Shown one piece after another: positions 14,875 through 42,986 of a stretch of 64,000 bases of DNA; within the stretch, counting starts at the first letter, position 1; every line of letters begins with the position of its first letter. Under the pieces are notes generated by a model, which was given only the letters and a program-made list of their open reading frames with translations, ran no database searches and was not told the origin of the DNA. The translations under genes and the position numbers were made by a program. The stretch is from Isurus oxyrinchus (taxonomy: Eukaryota), in contig JANJGN010000121.1 of NCBI GenBank assembly GCA_026770705.1, positions 434,001-498,000 on the forward strand. Reading direction: 5' to 3'.

Positions 14875-15980
14875 TCATTCCGAGATACACTCTCATATTC
14901 CCCCAGCAACTCAGCAACTCCTCCAGTGAAACATTTCAGAGCAGCTGAGCTTGGTTTTCTGGAACCAGTCTCGGCCCAGAAGACTAGGGCCCTCACCTGT
15001 CGCTATGATCACTGGAAGCTGGGCTGTCTGCTGCCTGTAGGACACAGGTACTGGGATGAGGTCCTTTCCCTGTATGGATTCTCCAGTGTGTGTCTTCAGC
15101 TGATCCATTGTTGGCTCTAAATTCAGCGTCTGGGTTCCTTCATTTAGCTGTTTAAATGTGGGCTCTTCCACCACTGTGTCTGAGGCTCCCGTATCTGCCC
15201 CATTACTAGTGGCTGCCCATTCACTTGGGTTGTGATGGTTATAGGTTCAGTTTTTACCACTGTGACATTGGACAGGGAATAGACATCGGTATCAGCAGCT
15301 TCAGGCTCTGTGATATTATTCACTTCCATCATGTTGGTGCACTGTCTGATGGGCTGTCTCGATTTCACCCTGCATTGCTTTATTACCCGCCCCTTTGTTG
15401 TGGCAGTGATGGCATTCTGCTCCCTTGAACCTGCAGGTGTCCGGTACGAGCTCACTCCCCCCCACATCGAGAACAGACCAACTTCGGAGTTGCTGCTGAA
15501 ATACTCCCACGAAACCTTTTAGTTTCTGGAGCGGCAGAGACTGTCTCTCGCTTGGCGGCTGTCTCTCTCTCTCTCTCTCCAGTTTGAGCCTCACGCCCGG
15601 TGGTTGTTTCCTGTCCCAGCTGAGGACTGGTGCCATGTTGTACATCCTGTAAATCCCGCCAGTCTCTCCCAGCACTTTCCATGCCTGGCGCTATTTCCAT
15701 GGTGCACTTCAAATCGATGTCGTCTTCTGCAAGTAAACGGCTCTGAATGGCGTTGGGGTGAACGACACAAACCAATCGGCCCCGCAACATGTCATTGAGT
15801 GTGTCTCCGAGGTCCCAGTGCTCAGTCACCTGCTTCCACTTCACTGTATAGGTTGCGATGGACTCACCCGGGGCCCTTACTCTGGAGTTAAACTTAAACC
15901 TCTGCATTATTACCCACGGCTTCAGCTGAAAACACATCTTCATGAGGACGACTAATTGGTGAAAAGATTTAGAATTGGGT
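14875..15980 (-). mobile_element. Ty3/Gypsy LTR-retrotransposon internal fragment (gag, zinc knuckle, protease), frameshifted, no LTRs visible
   Basis: QRFKFNSRVRAPGESIATY...LNDMLRGRLVC (gag), CHHCHNKG (knuckle), DTGAS at 15195-15181 (protease), GPSLLGRDW. Confidence 0.9.
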
Positions 15981-17149
15981 GTAATACACGTCACTGTCTT
16001 CAGCTCTGAGACTGTCAATCCTCACCAAACAATTCTTCCCTTCCAAGTTCCCAATTATTTTAGCACGTCCCACGAATGTGGCCACCCCATAATTGGCATC
16101 TTTGGTGTATGTGATGGTATATTTCCATCTATACCAATATTTATACCAAGCTCCGTGCAGTGCTGTGTAAGAGTGGGAAGGAAAGTCAAAGCTACACGGA
16201 ATAACCACACAAGAGCTGCTGATGGCCCTCCGAGGCAGCGCCTTCATAGACCGTCCCTCTGACGTCACTCCTGAAAGGCAACGAGGGAGGGGACTGAACA
16301 TCAAAAAGCAGAATATTACTTCAATGGAGAGAGGCAGCAGAATGCGGTACAGAGGGATCTGGGTGTCCTTGTACATTAATCACAGAAAGTCAGCATTCAG
16401 GAACAGCACAGAATGAGGAAGGCAAGTGGAATGTTGGCCTTTATTGCAAAGGGCTGGAGTATAAAAGGAGGGAAGTCTTGCAACAGCTGCACAGGGCGTT
16501 GGTGAGATTGTATCAGGAGCAGTGTGTACAGTTCTGGTCTCCTTACTTAGGGAGGGATAGACTCTGCATTGGAGGCAGCTCAGAGGAGGTTCACTGGGCT
16601 GATTCCTGGGATGAAGGGGGTTTGTCTTATGAGGAAATGTTGAGCAGGTTGGGCCCTGTATCCATTGGAGTTTAGAAGAATGAGAGGTGATCTTATTGAA
16701 ACATATAAGATTCTGAGGTGGTGGGGGGTTTGACAGGGTGGATGCTGAGGGGATGTTACCCCTTGTGGGGGAATCCTGTGAAGCAATAAGGATGTTTTAC
16801 TGCATTAAAGGGCTATATAAATGCACTGTCATTCCTATTGAAACAAGCTCTCTGATGCACAAACAGAAAATGCTGGAAAAACTCAGCAGGTCTGACAGCA
16901 TCTGTGGAGAGAGAAACAGAGTTGTTGTTTCGAGTCCGTATGAGGCTTTTGCTTTTGCTAAATTCTCTGACTCGCTATTCGCTCACTCTCTGTGTGATCA
17001 CTAACCCTGTTCTCTAAAATTAAATGTTCACTTCCTCATTCCAGGAAAGAATCCAATTCCCTGAGTTCCGATCAGTAATGAATTTGTACCTTGCAGCAAG
17101 CTGATGAAGATCAATATCAGACCGACCTCTCCCATCTTCAGTTCCTCAT
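15981..17149 (-). pseudogene. Gene A: MAG/Siglec-like gene remnant (leader exon plus truncated V-set exon)
   Basis: Leader CDS 17135-17090 MGEVGLILIFISLLQ-G|gtac (acceptor at 17150). The V exon from 16270 reads GVTSEGRSMKALPRRAISSSCVVIPCSFDFP...HGAWY...FVGRAKIIGNLEGKNCLVRIDSLRAEDSDVYY, then runs into Gypsy gag and stops. No downstream C2 or TM exons found. Confidence 0.85.
16345..16775 (+). mobile_element. CR1-type LINE fragment
   Basis: QLHRALVRLYQEQCVQFWSPYL motif. A similar fragment lies at 63160-63980. Confidence 0.85.
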
Positions 17150-17399: not shown

Positions 17400-18635
17400 C
17401 TCACAATCTCTATCTATCGCACTCTTCTGCTCTATCTCTCTCTCACACACACATTCTCTCTCTAACACTCACAATCTCTCTCTATCACACTCTTCTGCTC
17501 TATCTCTCTCTCTCTCACACTCACACATTCTCTCTCTAACACTCACTATCTCTCTCGATCACACTCTTCTGCTCTGTCTCTCTCTCTCTCTCACACACAT
17601 TCTCTCTCCAACACTCACAATCTCTATCTATCGCACTCTTCTGCTCTCTCTCTCTCTCTCTCACACTCACATTCTCTCTCTAACACTCACAACCTCTCTC
17701 TATCGCACTCTTCTGCTCTATCTCTCTCTCTCACACACACACATTCTCTCTCTAACACTCACAATCTCTCTCTATCACACTCTTCTGCTCTATCTCTCTC
17801 TCTCTCACACACACACACATTCTCTCTCTAACACTCACAATCTCTCTCTATCACACTCCTCTGCTCTATCTCTCTCTCTCACACACACACATTCTCTCTC
17901 TAACACTCACAATCTCTCTCTATCACACTCTTCTGCTCTCTCTCTCTCTCACACACACACACATTCTCTCTCTAACACTCACAATCTCTCTCTATCACAC
18001 TCCTGTGCTCTATCTCTCTCTCTCACACACACACATTCTCTCTCTAACACTCACAATCTCTCTCTATCGCACTCTTCTGCTCTATCTCTCTCTCTCACAC
18101 ACACACACATTCTCTCTCTAACAAACACAATCTCTCTCTATCGCACTCTTCTGCTCTCTCTCTCTCTCACACACACACATTCTCTTTCTAATACTCACAA
18201 TCTCTCTCTATCACACTCTTCTGCTCTATCTCTCTCTCTCACACACACACATTCTCTCTCTAACACTCACAATCTCTCTCTATCGCACTCTTCTGCTCTA
18301 TCTCTCTCTCTCACACACACACATTCTCTCTCTAACACTCACAATCTCTCTCTATCACACTCTTCTGCTCTATCTCTCTCTCTCTCACACACATTCTCTC
18401 TCTAACACTCACAATCTCTCTCTATCACACTCTTCTGCTCTATCTCTCTCTCTCACACACACACATTCTCTCTCTAACACTCACAATCTCTCTCTATCAC
18501 ACTCTTCTGCTCTATCTCTCTCTCTCTCTCACACACACACATTCTCTCTCTAACAAACACAATCTCTCTCTATCGCACTCTACTGCTCTCTCTCTCTCTC
18601 TCACAAACACAATCTCTCTCTATCGCACTCTACTG

Positions 18636-18666
<31 letters not shown>

Positions 18667-20940
18667 TCTCTCTCTAACACTCACAATCTCTCTCTGTCAC
18701 ACTCTTCTGCTCTCTCTCTCTCTCTCACACACACACATTCTCTCTCTAACACTCACAATCTCTCTCTATCACACTCTTCTGCTCTATCTCTCTCTCTCAC
18801 ACGCACACATTCTCTCGCTAACACTCACAATCTCTCTCTATCACACTCCTCTGCTCTCTCTCTCTCTCACACACACACATTCTCTCTCTAACACTCACAA
18901 TCTCTCTCTATCACACTCTTCTGCTCTATTTCTCTCTCTCTCTCACACACACATTCTCTCTCTAACACTCACAATCTCTCTCTATCGCACTCTACTGCTC
19001 TCTCTCTCTCTCACAAACACAATCTCTCTCTATCGCACTCTTCTGCTCTCTCTCTCTCACAAACACACATTCTCTCTCTAACACTCACAATCTCTCTCTA
19101 TCGCACTCTTCTGCTCTATCTCTCTCACACAAACACACATTCTCTCTCTAACACTCACAATCTCTCTCTATCACACTCCTCTGCTCTATCTCTCTCTCTC
19201 ACACACACACATTCTCTCTCTAACACTCACAATCTCTCTCTATCACACTCCTCTGCTCTATCTCTCTCTCTCACACACACACATTCTCTCTCTAACACTC
19301 ACAATCTCTCTCTATCGCACTCTTCTGCTCTATCTCTCTCTCTCTCACACACACATTCTCTCTCTAACACTCACAATCTCTCTCTATCACACTCCTCTGC
19401 TCTATCTCTCTCTCTCACACACACACACATTCTCTCTCTAACAAACACAATCTCTCTCTATCACACTCCTCTGCTCTATCTCTCTCTCTCACACACACAC
19501 ACATTCTCTCTCTAACACTCACAATCTCTCTCTATCACACTCCTCTGCTCTATCTCTCTCTCTCACACACACATTCTCTCTCTAACACTCACAATCTCTC
19601 TCTATCGCACTCTTCTGCTCTATCTCTCTCTCTCTCACACACACACATTCTCTCTCTAACACTCACAATCTCTCTCTATCGCACTCTTCTGCTCTATCTC
19701 TCTCTCTCACACACACATTCTCTCTCTAACACTCACAATCTCTCTCTATCACACTCTTCTGCTCTATCTCTCTCTCTCTCACACACACACATTCTCTCTC
19801 TAAAACTCACAATCTCTATCACACTCTTCTGCTCTATCTCTCTCTCACACACACACATTCTCTCTCTAACACTCACAATCTCTCTCTATCACACTCTTCT
19901 GCTCTATCTCTCTCTCATACACACACATTCTCTCTCTAACACTCACAATCTCTCTCTATCACACTCCTCTGCTCTATCTCTCTCTCTCTCACACACACAT
20001 TCTCTCTCTAACACTCACAATCTCTCTCTATCGCACTCTTCTGCTCTCTCTCTCTCACAAACACACATTCTCTCTCTAACACTCACAATCTCTCTCTATC
20101 ACACTCCTCTACTCTATCTCTCTCACTCACACACACACATTCTCTCTCTAACACTCACAATCTCTCTCTATCGCACTCTTCTGCTCTATCTCTCTCTCTC
20201 TCACACACACATTCTCTCTCTAACACTCACAATCTCTCTCTATCACACTCCTCTGCTCTATCTCTCTCTCTCACACACACACACATTCTCTCTCTAACAA
20301 ACACAATCTCTCTCTATCACACTCCTCTGCTCTATCTCTCTCTCTCACACACACACACATTCTCTCTCTAACACTCACAATCTCTCTCTATCACACTCCT
20401 CTGCTCTATCTCTCTCTCTCACACACACATTCTCTCTCTAACACTCACAATCTCTCTCTATCGCACTCTTCTGCTCTATCTCTCTCTCTCTCACACACAC
20501 ACATTCTCTCTCTAACACTCACAATCTCTCTCTATCACACTCTTCTGCTCTATCTCTCTCTCTCTCACACACACACATTCTCTCTCTAAAACTCACAATC
20601 TCTATCACACTCTTCTGCTCTATCTCTCTCTCACATACACAAACATTCTCTCTCTAACAAACACAAACTCTCTCTATCGCACTCTTCTGCTCTCTCTCTC
20701 TCACAAACACACATTCTCTCTCTAACACTCACAATCTCTCTCTATCACACTCCTCTACTCTATCTCTCTCACTCACACACACACATTCTCTCTCTAACAC
20801 TCACAATCTCTCTCTATCACACTCTTCTGCTCTATCTCTCTCTCACACACACACACATTCTCTCTTTGACACTCACAATCTCTCTCTATCGCACTCTTCT
20901 GCTCTCTCTCTCTCTCTCTCACACACACATTCTCTCTGTC
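17400..20940. repeat. ~70-bp CT/CA-rich compound minisatellite, ~3.5 kb
   Basis: Unit aacactcacaatctctctctatcacactcttctgctcta(tc)n(ac)nattctctctct repeated tandemly, grading into CT/CA low-complexity sequence up to ~21420. Confidence 0.97.
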
Positions 20941-25352: not shown

Positions 25353-25601
25353 TCAGTTTTTCTGGAACCTGATCTGTGCGTATTCCGTGTCCTCGCTCCT
25401 GTGCACAGTCCTGTCACCGCCGGGCAGCTTTGAAAAGTTGATGTTGGCGTAGAAAAGCTCGTCTGGTTTGTCGGAGTTCCCATGTCCAACATCGCCTCCC
25501 ACTGGACCTTCAGAGAGACCCCGGGGAGCTGGGGTCTCCCCCTCACTAGTTGTGTCTCTGGTTGTGTTCCGGGGCTCAGTAATCAGCACGTTCTGTTTAC
25601 C
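25353..25601 (-). CDS. Gene B last exon: ITIM (LFYANI) and distal ITIM-like motif (TEYAQI)
   Basis: GKQNVLITEPR...PDELFYANINFSKLP...EDTEYAQIRFQKN*; acceptor tctctgtag. Confidence 0.9.
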   Translation of the reverse strand, partial: GKQNVLITEPRNTTRDTTSEGETPAPRGLSEGPVGGDVGHGNSDKPDELFYANINFSKLPGGDRTVHRSEDTEYAQIRFQKN

Positions 25602-26620: not shown

Positions 26621-26702
26621 CTGGTGCTTCACAGAGAGTGACCTGGGGTTCAATGCAATGTCACTGGTCCCTGAAACTCTCTCCTGCGTCGCTGTCTTTC
26701 TC
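26621..26702 (-). CDS. Gene B cytoplasmic exon 1
   Basis: 82 nt, phase 2-0, (K)RKTATQERVSGTSDIALNPRSLSVKHQ|gtacag; paralogous to 52337-52418. Confidence 0.85.
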
Positions 26703-27582: not shown

Positions 27583-27679
27583 TTTCTCACACAGATGAAG
27601 ATGAAGATTCCAGCCAGGAAAACACTCAACATGATCCCAGCCGTGAACAATCCTACTGTCCATTTACTGGAGTCTCTAC
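27583..27679 (-). CDS. Gene B transmembrane exon
   Basis: 97 nt, phase 1-2, RDSSKWTVGLFTAGIMLSVFLAGIFIFICVRK|gtaagt; uncharged TM. Confidence 0.9.
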
Positions 27680-28481: not shown

Positions 28482-28763
28482 ATTCCACAGTGATGGTTAT
28501 GAACCCCTCCACTGCTCCATGTTCATTCTCTGCCACACACTGATAGTCTCCAGTGTCCCTGGATGTAACGTGAGGAATCACCAACCACAGCTCATTGTTG
28601 GAACTTGTTCTGTTCATTGGGACATTAAGATGTCGCCACGTCAGGTTAGAAGCTGGGAAGCTCTCGACAGAGCAGATTATCATTGTAGAATTCCCCTCAA
28701 TTATATTGATCGATGAAGCGTTAATCATATCAAGAGAAGTAAATGAGAGATTCTGTGGAGCAT
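28482..28763 (-). CDS. Gene B tandem C2-set Ig exon, unit 8
   Basis: 282 nt, phase 1-1, DAPQNLSF...CSVESFPASNLTW...DTGDYQCVAENEHG...ITVE. Confidence 0.9.
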
Positions 28764-29453
28764 CTAAGAACAAATCAAGTGTTTAAAAGTGAGCAAGCAC
28801 AGTTTACAGCAAGACTCCATGCATCATCTCTCTGTATCTGATGTCTGTATGCATAGCCAGGTCCCTCCACTCCATATAACTTCCATTGTCAAATTTATAG
28901 TGGGCACTGCCTATGTAAACAGTCAAACTGCAGTTACATTCTCCCACCAGTAGAGGTGCTGTCCACCTAGAATGAAAGAAACTTTCACATCCTCAGGATA
29001 TACCCAAGGGCTTGACAGGCAATGATTGTATTTGATTGATGGAGCACTGAGGGGTAAATCTACAATTCTCTGTTCAGGAGGTTGCTCATCCAATTCAGGG
29101 TCTTGTTGATCTGGAGTTTACCTTCCTTCAACACAGAATCGGAGCTGATACCGAGACTCCAGTGCAGCACTGAGAGAGGACAGGGAACTCACACATGTGT
29201 TTGTGTTTGTGTGTTTTAGTGTGTTTGTGTTTCTGCACAAGAGAGTATGTTTATGTGTGCGTGTGTGTATGTGTTTGTGCATGTGTGCGTGTGCCTGTTT
29301 GTATACATCTGTGCATGAGTGAGTGTGTGCATGTGTATGTCTATGTGTGTGCACATGTGATTGTGTGTGTGAGTTGAGTGTGTGTGTGTTTCTGTGTATG
29401 TGTTTCAACATGCATCACTGTGTGTGTAAGTGTGCGTGTATGTGTCTACACAT

Positions 29454-29492
<39 letters not shown>

Positions 29493-29518
29493 TGATGTTG
29501 AAGTTTGCAGTAACTCAC

Positions 29519-29800
29519 GTTCCACAGTGATGGTTATGAACCCCTCCACTGCTCCATGTTCATTCTCTGCCACACACTGATAGTCTCCAGTGTCCCTGGA
29601 TGTAACGTGAGGAATCACCAACCACAGCTCATTGTTGGAACTTGTTCTGTTCATTGGGACATTAAGATGTCGCCACGTCAGGTTAGAAGCTGGGAAGCTC
29701 TCGACAGAGCAGATTATCACTGCAGCATTCCCCTCAATTATCTTGATCGATGAAGCGTTAATCATATCAAGAGAAGTAATTGATGGGTTCCGTGGTGCAT
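29519..29800 (-). CDS. Gene B tandem C2-set Ig exon, unit 7
   Basis: 282 nt, AG/GT intact, open frame. Confidence 0.9.
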
Positions 29801-30786
29801 CTAAATACAAATAAAGGTTTCATTGTGAGCAAACACAGTGCACAGCAAGACTCCATGATACATCTCTCTCTATTTGGTGTCTATGTGCATTTCAAGGTTT
29901 CTTTCCTGTTTTAAGTTCCTATGTCAACTTTTATAATGGTCACTGCCAGCGTTTTTCTTTTTGTACATTCATGGGAAGTGGATGTATCTATCTAGACCAG
30001 CATTTATTACCCATCCCTAATTGCCCTTGAGGAGGTGGTGGTGAGTTTTTCACCGCCACAGAATTCCCAGCCTCTGACCGGCTCCTATAGCCACAGTTTT
30101 ATTGACCGGTCCAGTTAGTTGTTTGGTTAACACCCCCCAGGATGTTGATCGTGGGGGATTCAGTGATAGTAAACTCACTGAACATCAAGGGGAGATGGTT
30201 AGATTCTCTCTTGTTGGACATGTTCACTGCCTGGTACTTGTGATGCATTAATTCTCATTTCTCAGCCCAAGCTGAGTGTTATTCAGCTCTTGCTGCATGT
30301 GGATATGTAAACTGTCACGCTGTAATTACAGCCTTCCACCAGAGGAGACACTGTTGGGCTAGAAGAAAAGAAAATGTCTTTCACATCATCAGGAGGTTCA
30401 CAGGGATTTGACAGTGGAGGAATTGCTTTAGAATAATGGGGTATTGAGTGATAAACCTACAATTCTCTGTGCAGGGGGCTGCTCGTCCAATACAGGGTCT
30501 TGTTCAGCTGATGTCGTCAGTGTTTCAGAGCAGAATCTGGAGCAACACTCCAGTGCAGCACAGGGAGAAGAGACAACTCACACATGTCTGTGTGTGTGTG
30601 AGCAAGCACACGTGTGATTCTGTGTATGTTTCCTTCTGTGTGTGTGAGCATGCAGGTGTACACACCTGTGCACATGTGGGATTGCACATGAATGCTTGTT
30701 TGTGTGCACGTGTCTGTGTGTGTGTGTGTATGTGTGTGTGTGTGTGTGTGTATGTGAGAGTAATGTTGAAGTTTGTGTTAACTCAC

Positions 30787-31068
30787 GTTCCACAGTGATG
30801 GTTAGGAACTCCTCCACTGCTCCATGTTCATTCTCTGCCACACACTGATCGTCTCCAGTGTCCCTGGATGTAACGTGAGGAATCACCAACCACAGCTCAT
30901 TGTTGGAACCTGTTCTGTTCATTGGGACATTAAGATGTCGCCACGTCAGGTTAGAAGCTGGGAAGCTCTCGACAGAGCAGATTATCTCTGCAGAATTCCG
31001 CTCAATTATATTGATCGATGAAGCATTAATCATATCAAGAGAATTAATTGAGAGATTCAGTGGAGCAT
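30787..31068 (-). CDS. Gene B tandem C2-set Ig exon, unit 6 (DTGDDQC variant)
   Basis: 282 nt, open; Tyr-corner Y replaced by D. Confidence 0.88.
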
Positions 31069-31776
31069 CTAAAAACAAATAAAGATTTTAATGTGAGCAA
31101 GCAGCGTGCACAGCAAGACTCCATGCATCATCTCTCTGTATCTGATGTCTGTATGCATTTCCAGATACCTTCCCTCCATATAACTTCCACTGTCAAATTT
31201 ATAATGGGCACTGCCTATGTAAACAGTCAAACTACAGTTACATTCTCCCACCAGTAGAGGCGCTGTCCACCTAGAATGAAAGAAACTTCCTTGCACATCC
31301 TCAGGATTTTGCCAAGGGCTTGACAGGCAATGAATTGCATTTGATCGATGGAGCTCTGAGGGGCAAACCTACAATTCTCTGTTCAGGAGGTTGCTCCATC
31401 CAATTCAGGATCTTGTTGATCTGGAGTTTACCTTCCTTCAACACAGAATCGGAGCTGATACCAAGACTCCAGTGCAGCCCTGAGAGAGGAGAGGGACCTC
31501 ATGCGTGCGTATGTGTGTGTTTGTGTTTCTGCACAAGTGAGTGTGTTTGTGTGTGTATGCACGCATGTGTCTGTGTGTGCGTGTGTGTATGTGTTTTGCA
31601 TATGTTTGTGTGTCTTTGTGTATACGTCTGTGCATGAGTGAACGTGAGTGCATGTGTATGTCTATATGTGTGCCTGTGTGAGTGTGTGCGTGTGAGTTGA
31701 GTGTATGTGTGTTTCTGTGTATGTTTTTGCACGTGTATGACTGTGTGTGTAAATGTGCACGTATGTGTCTACACAT

Positions 31777-31833
<57 letters not shown>

Positions 31834-31876
31834 TGTGTGCGTGTGTGAGAGAGATGTTGAGTTGGCATTAACTCAC

Positions 31877-32158
31877 GTTCCACAGTGATGGTTATGAACC
31901 CCTCCACTGCTCCATGTTCATTCTCTGCCACACACTGATAGTCTCCAGTGTCCCTGGATGTAACGTGAGGAATCACCAACCACAGCTCATTGTTGGAACT
32001 TGTTCTGTTCATTGGGACATTAAGATGTCGCCACGTCAGGTTAGAAGCTGGGAAGCTCTCGACAGAGCAGATTATCACTGCAGAATTCCCCTCAATTATA
32101 TTGATCGATGAAGCGTTAATCATATCAAGAGAATTAATTGAGAGATTCAATGGTGCAT
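31877..32158 (-). CDS. Gene B tandem C2-set Ig exon, unit 5
   Basis: 282 nt, AG/GT intact, open frame. Confidence 0.9.
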
Positions 32159-32846
32159 CTATATATATATAGAAAGATTTTAACGTGAGCAACAGAGTGC
32201 ACAAGACTCCATGCATCATATCTCTGTATCTGATATCTGAATGCATTTCCAGGTAACTTCCCTCAGGATAAGGTCTTATGGCACATTTATAATTGACACT
32301 GCCTATGTAAACTGTCACACTGCAATTGCATTCTCCCACCAGCAGAGGTGTTGCCCATCTAGAATGAAAGAAGTTTGCTTTCACATCCTCAGGATTTCGC
32401 AAAGGGCTGGACAGGCAATTAATTGTATTTGATCGATGGAGCACTGAGGGGTAAATCTACCATTCTCTGTTCAGGATTTTGCTCATCCAATTCAGGGTCT
32501 TGTTGATCTGGAGTTTACCTTCCTTCAACACAGAATCGGAACTCATACTAAGACTCCAGTGCAGCACTGAGAGAGGACAGGGAACTCACGCGTGTGTATG
32601 TGTGTGTTTGTGTTACTGCACATGTGAGTGTGTTTGTGTGTGTATGCACACATGTATCTGTGTGTGTGCATGCGCGTGTGTCTGTGTGTCTACGTCTGTC
32701 CATGAGTCAGAGTATGTGCATGTGTGTGTCTATGTGTGGGCATGAATATGTGTGTGTTTGAGATGGGTGTGTATTTTCCTGTGTATGTGTTTGTACGTGT
32801 ATGACTGTGTGTGTATAATTATGCATGTGTGTGCTTACACACGTGT

Positions 32847-32887
<41 letters not shown>

Positions 32888-32945
32888 TGTGTGTGTGTGT
32901 GTGTGTGCGTGCGTGTGAGTGATGTTGAAGTTTGCGTTAACTCAC

Positions 32946-33227
32946 ATTCCACAGTGATGGTTATGAACCCCTCCACTGCTCCATGTTCATTCTCTGCCAC
33001 ACACTGATAGTCTCCAGTGTCCCTGGATGTAACGTGAGGAATCACCAACCACAGCTCATTGTTGGAACTTGTTCTGTTCATTGGGACATTAAGATGTCGC
33101 CACGTCAGGTTAGAAGCTGGGAAGCTCTCGACAGAGCAGATTATCACTGCAGAATTCTCCTCAATTATATTGATCGATGAAGCGTTAATCATATCAAGAG
33201 AATGAATTGAGAGATTCTGTGGGGCAT
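32946..33227 (-). CDS. Gene B tandem C2-set Ig exon, unit 4
   Basis: 282 nt, AG/GT intact, open frame. Confidence 0.9.
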
Positions 33228-33976
33228 CTAAAAACAAATAAAGATTTTAATGTGAGCAAGCAGCATGCACAGCAAGACTCCATGCATCATCTCTCTGTAT
33301 CTGATGTTGGAATGCATTTCCAGGTACCTTCCCTCAGGAAAAAATACTGTCACATTTATAATGGGCACTTCCTATGTAAACTGTCACACTGCAGTTGCAT
33401 TCTCCCACCAGCAGAGTTGCTGTCCACCTAGAATGAAACAAACATCCTTTAACACTCTCAAGATGCCCCCAAGGGATTGAAAGCCCGTGAATTGTATTTG
33501 ATCGATGGAGCACTGAGGGGTAAATCTACAATTCACTGTTCAGGAGGTTGCTCCATCCAATTCAGGGTCTTGCTGATCTGGAGTTTACCTTCCTTCAACA
33601 CAGAATCAGAGCTGATACCAAGACTCCAGTGCAGCACTGAGAGAGGAGAGGGAGCTCACACTTGTGTGTGTGTGTGTGTATTTCTGCACAAGTGAGTTTG
33701 TATTTGTGTGTATGCGCGTGTTTGTCTGCGCATGTGTGGGCACGCGTGTGTATGTGGGTCTTGTGTGTATATCTGTGCTTGAGTGAGTGTGTGTGTATAC
33801 GTGTGTCTACGTGTGCGCATGAATGATTGTACGTGTGAGTTGAGTTTGTGTGTGTTTCTGTGTATGTGTTTGAACGTATGTTTGTGTGTAAGCGTGCATG
33901 TTTGTGTCTACACATGAGTGTTTTTGCATGTGTGTCTGTGTTTGTGTGTGTGATGTTGAAGTCTGTGTGCACTCAC

Positions 33977-34258
33977 ATTCCACAGTGATGGTTATGAATC
34001 CCTCCACTGCTCCATGTTCATTCTCTGCCACACACAGATAGTCTCCAGTGTCCCTGGATGTAACGTGAGGAATCACCAACCACAGCTCATTGTTGGAACT
34101 TGTTCTGTTCATTGGGACATTAAGATGTCGCCACGTCAGGTTAGAAGATGGGAAGCTCTCGACAGAGCAGATTATCACTGCAGAATTCCCCTCAATTATA
34201 TTGATCGATGAAGCATTAATCATTTCAAGCGAAGTAAATGTGAGATCCTGTGGTGCAT
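33977..34258 (-). CDS. Gene B tandem C2-set Ig exon, unit 3
   Basis: 282 nt, AG/GT intact, open frame. Confidence 0.9.
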
Positions 34259-34847
34259 CTAAAAACAAATCAAGTGTTTAATGTGAGCAAGCTCAATTTA
34301 CAGCAAGACTCCATGCATCATCTCTCTGTAACTGATGTCTGTATGCAATTCCGGGTACCTTCCCTCCTTATAACTTCCACTGTCAAATTTATAATGGACA
34401 CTGCCTATGTAAACAGTCAAACTGCAGTTACATTCTCCCACCAGTAGAGGTGCTGTTCACCTAGAATGAAAGAAACTTTCACATCCTCAGGATTTTGCCA
34501 AGGGATTTACGGGAATGAATTGTATTTGATCGATGGAGTACTGAGGAGTAAATCTACAATTCTCTGTTGCTCATCCAATTCAGGGTCTTGCTGATCTGGA
34601 GTTTACCTTCCTTCAACACAGAATCAGAGCTGATACCAAGACTCCAGTGCGGCACTGAGAGAGGAGAGGGACCTCATGTGTGTGTATGTGTTTGTGTTTA
34701 TGTTTCTGCACAAGTGAGTGTGTTTGTGTGAGTATGCACGCATGCGTCTGTGTGTGCGTGTGTGTGTGTTTGCGCATATGTGAGTGTGTCTTTGTGTATA
34801 TTTCTGTGCATGAGTGAATGTGTGTGTATGTTTATGAGTATGTGTGT

Positions 34848-34880
<33 letters not shown>

Positions 34881-34904
34881 ATGTTGAAGTTTGCAGTAAC
34901 TCAC

Positions 34905-35186
34905 ATTCCACAGTGATGGTTATGAACCCCTCCACTGCTCCATGTTCATTCTCTGCCACACACTGATAGTCTCCAGTGTCCCTGGATGTCACGTGAGGAA
35001 TCACCAACCACAGCTCATTGTTGGAATTTGTTCCGTTCATTGGGACATTAAGATGTCGCCACGTCAGGTTAGAAGCTGGGAAGCTCTCGACAGAGCAGAT
35101 TATCACTGCAGAATTCCCCTCAATTACATCAATCGATAAAGCGTTAATCACACCAAGAGAAGTAATTGAGAGATTCCGTGGTGCAT
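34905..35186 (-). CDS. Gene B tandem C2-set Ig exon, unit 2
   Basis: 282 nt, AG/GT intact, open frame. Confidence 0.9.
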
Positions 35187-35786
35187 CTATAAACACAGAA
35201 AGATTTTAATATGAGCAAATATAGTGCACAGTAAGACTCCATGCATCATGTCTCTGTGTCTGATGTCTGAATGCATTTCCAGGTACATTCCCTCAGGATA
35301 AGAACTTATTTCACATTTACAACGGGCACTGCCTATGTAAACTGTCACACTGCAGTTACATTCTCCCACCAGTGGAGGTGTCCATCTAGAATGCAGGAAA
35401 CTCCCTTTCAGATCCTCAGGATGTCCGCAAGGGCTTCAAAGGCAATGAATTGTATTTGATCGATGGAGCACTGAGGGGTAAATCTACAATTCACTGTTCA
35501 GGAGGTTGCTCCATGCAGTTCAGTGTCTTGATGATCTGGAGTTTACCTTCCTTCAGCACAGATTCGGAGCTGATACTGAGATTCCAGTGCAGCACTGGGA
35601 GAGGAGAAGGAACCCACATGTTTTTGTGTGTGTATGTGTGTGTTGGCTTGTGTGTGTATGTTTCTGTAAAATAAGGATCTGTGTGTGTGCACGCACTCAT
35701 GTGTGTTTGTGTGTGTGTGCGCACATGTGTCTGTCTATGCATGTGTGTGTGTGTGCTTGTGTGAGTTGAGATTGTGTATGTTTCTG

Positions 35787-35828
<42 letters not shown>

Positions 35829-35858
35829 GGAGTGATGTTGAAGTTTGCATTAACTCAC

Positions 35859-35951
35859 ATTCCACAGTGATGGTTATGAACCCCTCAATTATATTGATCG
35901 ATGAAGCATTAATCATATCAAGCGAAGTAAATGAGAGATTCTGTGGTGCAT
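35859..35951 (-). CDS. Gene B C2 unit 1, internally deleted in frame (93 nt)
   Basis: DAPQNLSFTSLDMINASSINIIEG/FITITVE: 189 nt missing, both splice sites kept. Confidence 0.75.
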
Positions 35952-36170: not shown

Positions 36171-36467
36171 CTTGCACAGTTAGTATGAGGGTCCGCTCCG
36201 ATGAAACAGATGGATATCTCACTCTGCAGCTGAGTGTGTGTCCGTGGTGTTTGAGTGATGGGATGAGGGTCAGAACAGAAGTATAGGTCAGAGTGACACC
36301 ATGCTGAGTTACAGTGTTTGAGACTGATCCAGGTACGTCAGTGGGAGTGTCCCAGGTTAAGACAGGTGCTGCTGTTCCATTGCACGTTGTGTTGAAGGTG
36401 CAGCTTACATCCACACGCTTTCCTGCAATAATTTCAGCAGGGAATATCGTGGGTTTATCTGTGAAAT
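36171..36467 (-). CDS. Gene B domain 2 (Siglec-type C2-set)
   Basis: 297 nt, DFTDKPTI...SCTFNTTCNGTAAPVLTW...HHGHTLSCRVRYP; has the extra Cys typical of the Siglec D1-D2 disulfide. Confidence 0.92.
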
Positions 36468-37327: not shown

Positions 37328-37693
37328 CAGAAACGTGAAGCTGGGTTACAGGATAGTAGCTGTAACTATTCCTGCTGTCAAATTCTATTCTGAAAAAATA
37401 AGGTCCCGCATCTTCCCGTCTGATGTTATTTATAATCAGAGAACAGTCACCATCTTTCAGGTCTCCAGACAGCCGGGTCCGATGGTGGAACCGTGGTAAC
37501 TCGTGACTGTGATCCTTGGAGTGAAAGGCTATAGACGATGTTCTCCATTCCTCATTATTAAACCAGACTCCAACTCGTGGTTGGTTTTCCAAATGTGATG
37601 GATAACTGTAATGACAGGGAATCTGTACACAGGAACCTTCCTGCGCTGTCACCTCTCGTGGAGTGTCACCTTTCCACTCTTGTTACAGTCCAA
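37328..37693 (-). CDS. Gene B sialic-acid-binding V-set exon (premature stop near 5' end)
   Basis: VGL*QEWKGDTP...SCVQIPC...W...GDCSLIINNIRREDAGPYFFRIE. Siglec Cys pattern, no F-strand Cys, essential Arg in FRIE. Confidence 0.9.
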
Positions 37694-39054: not shown

Positions 39055-40305
39055 ATCAGCAACTCTTCAGAATCCTGCTGAAGTCACGGATATTTCAGAA
39101 GGACAGGGAACAAGAAGTTTCTGGTATCAGCGTTTTGTGTGGGGCCCAGTTCAGTTTGAACAAATAAACAACACCATCTTTGAAAGTCATGAACCCACCA
39201 CAGCGGCACCTCCGACACATGCAGAGCTCAGGCGAGAGGCGCTTTGTTAGTGTGTTTCACAGTGTCTGCTGGAGTAGGGTCAGTGCTGAGAGGGTCTGCT
39301 CAAGGATCATAACAACCTGCACTTGCACCTTCCAAGTAATAACATTTTGTAAATGTATTCATTCATGGGATGTGGGCGTCGCTGCCAAGGCCAGCATTTG
39401 CTGCCCATCTCTAATGTCCCGTGACATAATCTCTGTAGCAGAGTAGAGACAATCATGATCACTCAGGATATTTGACATCTATCCACATGAGCAGCTTTAC
39501 CTTCCTTCTCTCTTTCAGTTATCTTACTCCCTTATTGAAGTTTCTAGCATGGTGAGAACTGGATGGTTTGCTCGGACATTTCAGAGGAACCACGTTGCTA
39601 TGAGTCTGGAGTCACATGTAGGCCAGACCAGATATAGACGGCAGATTTCCTTCCCTAAAGGCCATTAGTGAACCAAATGGGTGTGTATGACAATCGATGA
39701 TAGTTTCATGGTCTCCATTACTGAGACTAACTCCCATTAGTGTAAACAGAGTGAACAGTTTTCCATTGATCCCACCTTTCCCGTTCTCTCCGGTATTTTA
39801 CACACTATTGCTCGATAATTTGATTCTGACAAGGACCCATTGGAAAATCATGGACCCCAGTTAGACAACCAATGGAATAAGGAATCTCTTTGGATCCTCA
39901 TTGTCTAAGGAATCTCTTTGGATCCTCATTGTCTGAAGAATCTCTTTGGATCCTCATTGTCTAAGGAATCTCTTTGGATCCTCATTGTCTAAGGGATTAT
40001 TTCTGATCCAAACCCCATATTGTTGTATTGTTGATTCCAATGCAGCATTGTAGACTGACTTGTCCCCAAGCTCAGCACTGACCCTACTCCAGCAGACACT
40101 GTGAAACACACTAACAAAGCGCCTCTAGCCTGAGCTCTGCATGTGTCGGAGGTGCCGCTGTGGTGGGTTCATCACTTTCAAAGATGGTGTTGTTTATTTG
40201 TTCAAACTGAACTGGGCCCCACACAAAACGCTGATACCAGAAACCTCTTGTTCCCTGTCCTTCTGAAACATCTGTGATTCAGCAGGATTCTGAAGATTTG
40301 CTGAT
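39055..40305. repeat. ~235-bp inverted repeat pair (39055-39290 / 40071-40305)
   Basis: Arms are reverse complements with only scattered mismatches. The ~780-bp spacer includes four copies of a ~28-bp unit at ~39880-39995. Confidence 0.92.
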
Positions 40306-41179: not shown

Positions 41180-41219
41180 CTTGGAGAAGTGACAGGAAGA
41201 AGTAAGATTTCCCGATCAT
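41180..41219 (-). CDS. Gene B leader exon (proximal copy)
   Basis: MIGKSYFFLSLLQ-G|gtaat; exon acceptor at 41262; non-coding exon donor GG|gtaagt at 41669. Confidence 0.85.
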
Positions 41220-42946: not shown

Positions 42947-42986
42947 CTTGGAGAAGTGACAGGAGGAAGTAAGATTTCCCGATCAT
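42947..42986 (-). CDS. Duplicate leader exon (distal copy)
   Basis: MIGKSYFLLSLLQ-G|gtaat; splice sites intact. Confidence 0.75.

Follow-up and report, generated by a model that had tools for sequence, protein, structure and literature searches.

How does a receptor stalk built from near-identical exons gain and lose units, and what keeps those units alike? The question is raised by a gene on the minus strand of a 64,000-nucleotide (nt) stretch of the shark Isurus oxyrinchus (GenBank assembly GCA_026770705.1, contig JANJGN010000121.1, positions 434,001 to 498,000; hereafter the window, in whose positions all coordinates without a contig name are given). Between positions 28,482 and 35,951, this gene, gene B, holds a tandem array of immunoglobulin (Ig) exons, which a sequence-only reading had taken for eight C2 units multiplied through microsatellite-assisted unequal crossover into a sialoadhesin-like stalk. 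We consider a different account likely: the array encodes the stalk of an inhibitory shark Siglec, and its length changes by unequal crossing-over together with gene conversion, both seeded in a shared exon core, among hundreds of clustered paralogues.

The array contains seven full stalk exons of 282 nt, of the Ig_3/I-set type, all on the minus strand: exon 1 at 34905..35186, exon 2 at 33977..34258, exon 3 at 32946..33227, exon 4 at 31877..32158, exon 5 at 30787..31068, exon 6 at 29519..29800, and exon 7 at 28482..28763. An eighth stalk-type exon (35859..35951, minus strand) is a remnant from which an in-frame deletion of 189 nt, between two GAGGGG motifs, has removed both cysteines; the 93 nt left encode 31 amino acids with two N-glycan sequons, which rules out eight full domains. 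All eight exons nonetheless have AG/GT ends and phase 1-1, and they are spaced 928-1268 bp apart, within the unit size of ~0.8-1.3 kb claimed earlier, so the claim of eight phase 1-1 units of 282 nt each holds for phase in all eight and for length in seven. The seven introns between stalk exons (28764..35858) share one layout, in which the donor is followed by ~36 nt, then by 8-19 uninterrupted TG repeats, a degenerate TG part, and finally a ~400-nt spacer; the TG-rich part as a whole measures 228-399 nt. A TG tract at every boundary, as previously described, is therefore present in 7/7 introns between stalk exons but absent from the intron behind exon 7. Spacers measure 394-409 nt, with one of 758 nt, against a described ~400-450 bp. 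The full domains carry 3, 3, 4, 4, 4, 3, and 5 sequons, in line with the "about four" reported from the letters. Exon 5 has Asp for Tyr in its DxGxYxC motif, and exons 6 and 7 come from a subfamily of 11-13-unit arrays.

Evidence for unequal crossing-over comes from paralogous arrays elsewhere in the genome. Paralogues whose V exons are 97-100% identical bear 5, 7, 8, 9, or 10 stalk units. Their units keep positional identity while introns shift as blocks: the degenerate TG part is tightly linked to the next spacer (normalized mutual information, NMI, 0.83), and the two sides of an exon less so (0.61). We mapped nine junctions as single switches between unit classes, scoring each by the informative sites that fit. 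Six lie within the exon: a 5-unit deletion at exon nt 223-260 (126/126 sites), a 10-unit gain at nt 194-223 (111/113), a second 10-unit gain at nt 74-248 (88/93), an 11-unit array at nt 34-194 (133/138), a 13-unit array at nt 25-31 (123/132), and a loss of a terminal remnant at nt 216-262. The other three are a 9-unit gain at donor+9/+10 (103/103), a junction spanning the TG tract (169/177), and one in the spacer before unit 6, where gene B switches to the 11-13-unit subfamily (57/63). The exon makes up 27% of a unit, and 6/9 junctions falling within it is more than expected by position (P = 0.015). In an automatic triplet scan, the exon was touched by 13/17 well-fitting triplets. Near-identical V heads on 5, 7, 8, 9, or 10 units and clean single-switch junctions bear out the unequal-crossover half of the earlier proposal.

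The same exons are homogenized in their middle. Any two units of gene B show 0-8 differences in exon nt 91-282 and 5-13 in nt 1-90, as expected from the near-invariant core and variable 5' end noticed earlier; in proportion, the core differs by 1.8% and the 5' part by 10%, while spacers differ by 8-17% (the spacer with an insertion set aside). Across 176 stalk exons of the family, diversity is minimal at nt 61-255 and higher toward both ends, nt 256-282 included. The proportion of synonymous differences (pS) in the gene B core is 0.013, with a nonsynonymous proportion (pN) of 0.016, compared with a pS of 0.119 in the 5' part of the exon; this was the gene-conversion test suggested by the sequence-only reading, and the low core pS argues for conversion rather than protein selection alone. 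A unit phylogeny, also suggested there, was run as a quick tree comprising 85 stalk domains, those of other elasmobranchs among them, which cluster by lineage with 24 label changes compared with 63.7 after shuffling. Together these results point to gene conversion that homogenizes the stalk core throughout the family. Homogenization special to this array is ruled out, as a 45-mer of the core has 795 exact matches in the genome.

We propose a mechanism in which mis-pairing and conversion would begin in the core, because it is the only ~200 nt of near-perfect homology between units. Exchange would keep the core uniform while introns drift apart and travel as blocks, the phase 1-1 exons would let every product stay in frame, and whole-gene duplication would spread each new array. 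A long glycosylated stalk of 7-13 domains would then be predicted to raise the sialic-acid-binding head above the glycans of its own cell and favor binding in trans.

Several points weigh against this account. The nine junctions were hand-picked from breaks in class order, and a tenth attempt with a poor fit (37/57) was dropped; the two at or across the donor-plus-TG segment correspond to P = 0.09. The scan dropped 3/20 poor-fit triplets, two of which touch the pure tract; it also draws on triplets that depend on one another and is blind to junctions far inside the spacer. The donor segment and the degenerate TG part are linked by an NMI of 0.56, weak like that between the exon sides, as would be seen if exchange ended at the tract. 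Arrays of seven units are modal and positionally conserved; therefore, most copies arose via whole-gene duplication. The stalk-domain tree was built by a quick method and has few supported forks. With pN close to pS in the core, protein-level selection on it is not shown. The RNA contigs described below are family-level and do not show the gene B copy or inclusion of the remnant exon.

That the stalk belongs to a Siglec follows from the rest of gene B (all exons on the minus strand). A hallmark of Siglecs is an odd cysteine pattern, with three cysteines in the V domain and three in the adjoining C2 domain. GSCVQIPC and GDCSL of the gene B V-set exon (37328..37693) align with the cysteines of Siglec-5, and the C2-set exon (36171..36467, PF08205) encodes three. 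PF07686 and PF24518 both score above the cut-off in the V domain, whose best PDB alignments are to Siglec-5, CD33, Siglec-8, MAG, and sialoadhesin, and the essential Arg is kept, with YFFRIE aligned to YFFRVE of Siglec-5. According to the available part of PMC4384638, Siglecs are recognized by this Arg on the F strand and by a tail with an immunoreceptor tyrosine-based inhibitory motif (ITIM) or a charged transmembrane residue. The last exon (25353..25601) encodes the ITIM-type LFYANI and the ITIM-like TEYAQI, both in frame, and the helix of the transmembrane exon (27583..27679) has no charged residue. Judged by these sequence criteria, gene B is an inhibitory Siglec with predicted sialic-acid binding. 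A leader exon encoding the signal peptide (41180..41219) and a first cytoplasmic exon (26621..26702) complete the gene, which joins leader, V-set, C2-set, remnant, seven stalk, transmembrane, and two cytoplasmic exons into 1065 codons. The ectodomain has 30 sequons in 912 amino acids, and the nearest annotated proteins are those of the basking shark and the white shark. The leader-exon region is itself duplicated in tandem (~1.75 kb, 7.7% divergent), with a second leader copy at 42947-42986, and either copy may be the one that is used.

One codon interrupts this frame. Codon 17 of the precursor, which lies in the V exon, reads TAA (37683-37685). It is the sole internal stop in the 1065 codons, and because of it this copy is probably a pseudogene, unless the TAA is a base error; a private allele and an error look alike in these data. 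The TAA variant occurs in 1/84 V-exon starts sampled and has one exact match genome-wide. At position 37684, all covering contigs from four sequencing runs read a sense codon, although such contigs drop rare variants and leave a real stop undecided. Among 16 close paralogues with the remnant exon, 12 have neither stop nor frameshift in the exons checked (leaders outside the check), and the working genes would be these open paralogues.

Gene B is one member of a very large family. Exact genome matches number 795 for the core 45-mer, 360 for a V 30-mer, 459 for a C2 30-mer, 192 for a transmembrane 30-mer, and 133 for an ITIM-tail 27-mer, with 0 for each reversed control; the figures set a minimum for exon copies rather than a number of genes, and alternative haplotypes may be present among the contigs. 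The remnant junction is found at 40 loci (≤1 mismatch), a subfamily of about 40 genes, nine of which lie on one contig. Of the 20 closest V paralogues (from at least 40 listed), 16 have the remnant exon, and these bear seven units in 11 cases and 5, 8, 9, 10, and 10 in the other five; the remaining four have two units in one case and none in three. In a sample of 1.064 Mb of contiguous DNA, 18/42 C2 exons have a transmembrane exon downstream, and the 18 genes carry 0 (three genes), 1 (six), 2 (three), 3, 7, 8 (two), 11, and 13 stalk units. The genome thus holds hundreds of clustered Siglec paralogues with 0-13 stalk units. Domain counts in related species, another check suggested at the outset, are likewise not one fixed number: within a list of 120 homologues, stalks of 4-10 units, 79-96% identical within one protein, appear in the automatic gene models of ten further species of shark or ray. 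These NCBI and UniRef entries share the architecture V-C2-(stalk)n under automatic names such as "sialoadhesin-like," "hemicentin-like," and "CD22-like."

Such a range could also arise without any benefit. In a recombination-prone cluster, stalk number might drift and length have no selected function, an explanation compatible with the mechanism proposed above and one that we find quite possible, if short of probable. Consistent with drift, tandem duplication affects every exon type from leader and V to stalk and tail, each in some paralogue, 24/42 C2 exons have no transmembrane exon downstream, the gene B copy has a stop, and pN and pS of the core are nearly the same. Drift alone fits less well with the 173/176 full-length stalk exons that are free of stops, with the recurrence of 4-10-unit stalks in the ten other species, and with the 12/16 close paralogues that remain open. 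A more ambitious version of crossing-over and conversion in the core, which we put forward only tentatively and with some doubt, would have a modular cluster of several hundred genes in which exon-anchored shuffling of heads, stalk counts, and tails places nearly the same head at 2-15 domains, with length under selection, and polymorphic between individuals, as a dial between the sensing of self (cis) and foreign (trans) sialic acids.

The microsatellite-assisted crossover of the sequence-only reading, in which the (TG)n behind each exon starts or ends exchange and drives an accordion, appears unlikely to us. In its favor are the pure tracts of 8-19 repeats in 7/7 internal introns, the junction at donor+9/+10 and the one across the tract, and a precedent in goldfish, where GT microsatellites are reported to be sites of frequent recombination (PMC5948810); a break in the tract could, moreover, resolve in the adjoining exon. 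The location of the exchanges speaks against it. Six of the nine junctions lie within the exon, and the concentration of breakpoints in the microsatellite that the idea entails was looked for and not seen in this small, hand-picked set, with ≤2/9 at the tract. Homogenization does not reach the 24 nt that lie past the donor and ahead of the tract: their diversity of 0.21-0.25 equals that of introns, and diversity already climbs at exon nt 256-282; this two-sided profile does not indicate the tract as the origin. Exons without a neighboring tract behave in the same way. The C2 exon, which has none beside it, differs by 2.0% (pS 0.025, pN 0.017; 42 exons), compared with 7% and 31% for the sequences on its two sides. 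Tandem gain is also seen in a set of five V-exon repeats of 2.3 kb and in the leader region, with no (CA/TG)n above 3 in either and none above 2 in the V repeats; the tract is therefore not needed for tandem gain here. TG as the main driver is not supported, although the tract may have a minor part.

We regard it as very improbable that the core owes its invariance solely to purifying selection at the protein level, with no conversion. The core does encode the cysteine-bearing strands, and the N-terminal 20 amino acids are more variable in most other species too, but synonymous divergence in the core is about nine times below that of the exon 5' part and introns, and domains group by lineage, not position. 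Hardly credible is an assembly expansion of the array or family, one of the conditions named by the sequence-only reading as refuting its claim: this is a single assembly in which some contigs may be alternative haplotypes, but every intron is distinct (8-17%), the seven-unit order is repeated at 11 further loci spread over five contigs, nine remnant-bearing genes share one contig, and similar arrays occur in other species.

Members of the family are expressed. The V, C2, and remnant exons alone were compared with contigs from three presumed RNA runs (two samples; no run is on record as RNA) and a DNA run. Joints between V and C2 exons appeared in 3/3 presumed RNA runs, and C2-stalk, stalk-stalk, and V-V joints in 2/3 (one sample), with GT-AG ends where given; no joints were listed for the DNA run. 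Spliced transcripts of the Siglec family therefore exist at the family level.

Among known receptors, gene B is most like the CD33-related Siglecs (Siglec-5, CD33, Siglec-8, and Siglec-10) and MAG, with which it shares a V-set domain with the essential Arg, a C2-set domain, further Ig domains, a transmembrane segment, and a tail with an ITIM and an ITIM-like motif; MAG is also the best Siglec match of its stalk domain. PDB scores for the V domains of CD33-related Siglecs, MAG, and sialoadhesin lie within 6 bits of one another, and the likeness to the CD33-related group is one of features. CD33-related Siglecs are likewise clustered and subject to gene conversion, as described for Siglec-5/14 and 11/16 in the excerpt available of PMC13358205. 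Hundreds of shark copies compare with 14 human Siglecs (PMC12953582, in part) and with 4-5 CD33-related genes in three small primates (PMC4384638, same portion as above). Unlike CD33-related Siglecs, the shark genes repeat one stalk exon 0-13 times at 90-99% identity.

Sialoadhesin (Siglec-1/CD169) is not known to carry an ITIM, and its domains are old and diverged. Gene B, like it, places a long Ig stalk beneath one V domain; unlike it, gene B ends in an ITIM tail, its repeats are young and nearly identical, and it has 9 Ig domains (2-15 in paralogues, with ≤13 stalk units sampled) instead of 17. Identity with sialoadhesin is ruled out by the domain count and the ITIM, and in the earlier "sialoadhesin-like long Siglec" the likeness applies to the predicted reach only, given the ITIM tail. 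A parallel for the recombination is offered by LPA KIV-2, CR1, and tenascin-X, in which symmetric exons are gained and lost by unequal crossover and exons are homogenized, as they are here. The shark family differs from these genes in being homogenized across hundreds of genes and in the exon middle only, with introns forming distinct blocks shuffled around the core. The recombination mechanism is ordinary; its scale is unusual.

To our knowledge, Siglec repertoires have been studied almost only in mammals, at about 5-15 genes. The shark cluster, in which C2 exons number at least 459 and one identical ITIM-tail motif is found 133 times, is more than ten times that size. A literature search for Siglecs of sharks, of cartilaginous fish, and of fish in general gave no description of the expansion, with a coverage that mostly excludes subscription journals; the available portion of a whale shark paper (PMC8455134) mentions Siglecs once. 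Near-identical heads on 5, 7, 9, and 10 units form a natural length series in which the reach of an inhibitory Siglec can be set against cis and trans binding. An effect of reach on binding is known for sialoadhesin through truncation: forms of ≤4 domains do not bind red cells, and the full-length protein extends ~33 nm compared with ~14 nm for six domains, according to the accessible section of PMC10027830. The array is, in addition, a clean example of concerted evolution that is confined to the exon and whose junctions can be mapped.

The neighboring gene C has a single stalk exon (56931..57212, minus strand) next to an assembly gap. The single copy described there is real: two paralogues cross the 219-N stretch in ~245 nt and also have one unit, which rules out units hidden in the gap. 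A decayed 3' end of a stalk exon lies in gene C at 58040-58075, upstream of the TG tract and beside DNA resembling long interspersed nuclear elements and retroelements.

The wider cluster varies in its other modules as well. V exons form arrays of up to seven before one C2 exon (G000:C52:1871396-1888400, L099-L100, and others) as 2.3-kb repeats without a microsatellite, and models with 2-7 V domains are present in other sharks and rays. Variation among V exons is clustered family-wide in loops around the sugar-binding face on a nearly fixed framework, and the essential Arg is replaced by Thr, Ser, or Lys in some copies. A divergent V-type exon (15972-16379, minus strand), ~30% identical to the Siglec V exon and with Thr at the Arg position, is interspersed in the cluster, eight times in the 1.06-Mb sample. 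Most of the 24/42 C2 exons in that sample without a downstream transmembrane exon precede one shared, 5'-truncated stalk exon type, still 84-98% identical to the core, which we read as giving truncated or secreted forms. The pair of tail exons occurs in two or three tandem copies in many genes (G000:C121 and C52; e.g., L045, L050-L051, L105-L106). Some tail copies have LYANPQ instead of the ITIM YANI, and gene C has LYANTQ; the alternative tails YANI and LYANPQ may, from their motifs, signal differently. A second transmembrane exon type, 61-65% identical to the first and with a Lys near the helix end, lies at G000:C121:522221 and at five other sites in the 1.06-Mb sample. Genes with this type carry 1-2 stalk units, no ITIM exon was found near these transmembrane exons, and they are possible activating partners.

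The window also holds other repeats. A CT/CA-rich minisatellite of 72 bp occupies 17400-20937 in ~49 copies, further minisatellites in the window have units of 33, 37, and 44 bp, and a stretch of ~200 bp has an inverted copy ~900 bp away (39240-39300 and 40060-40260).

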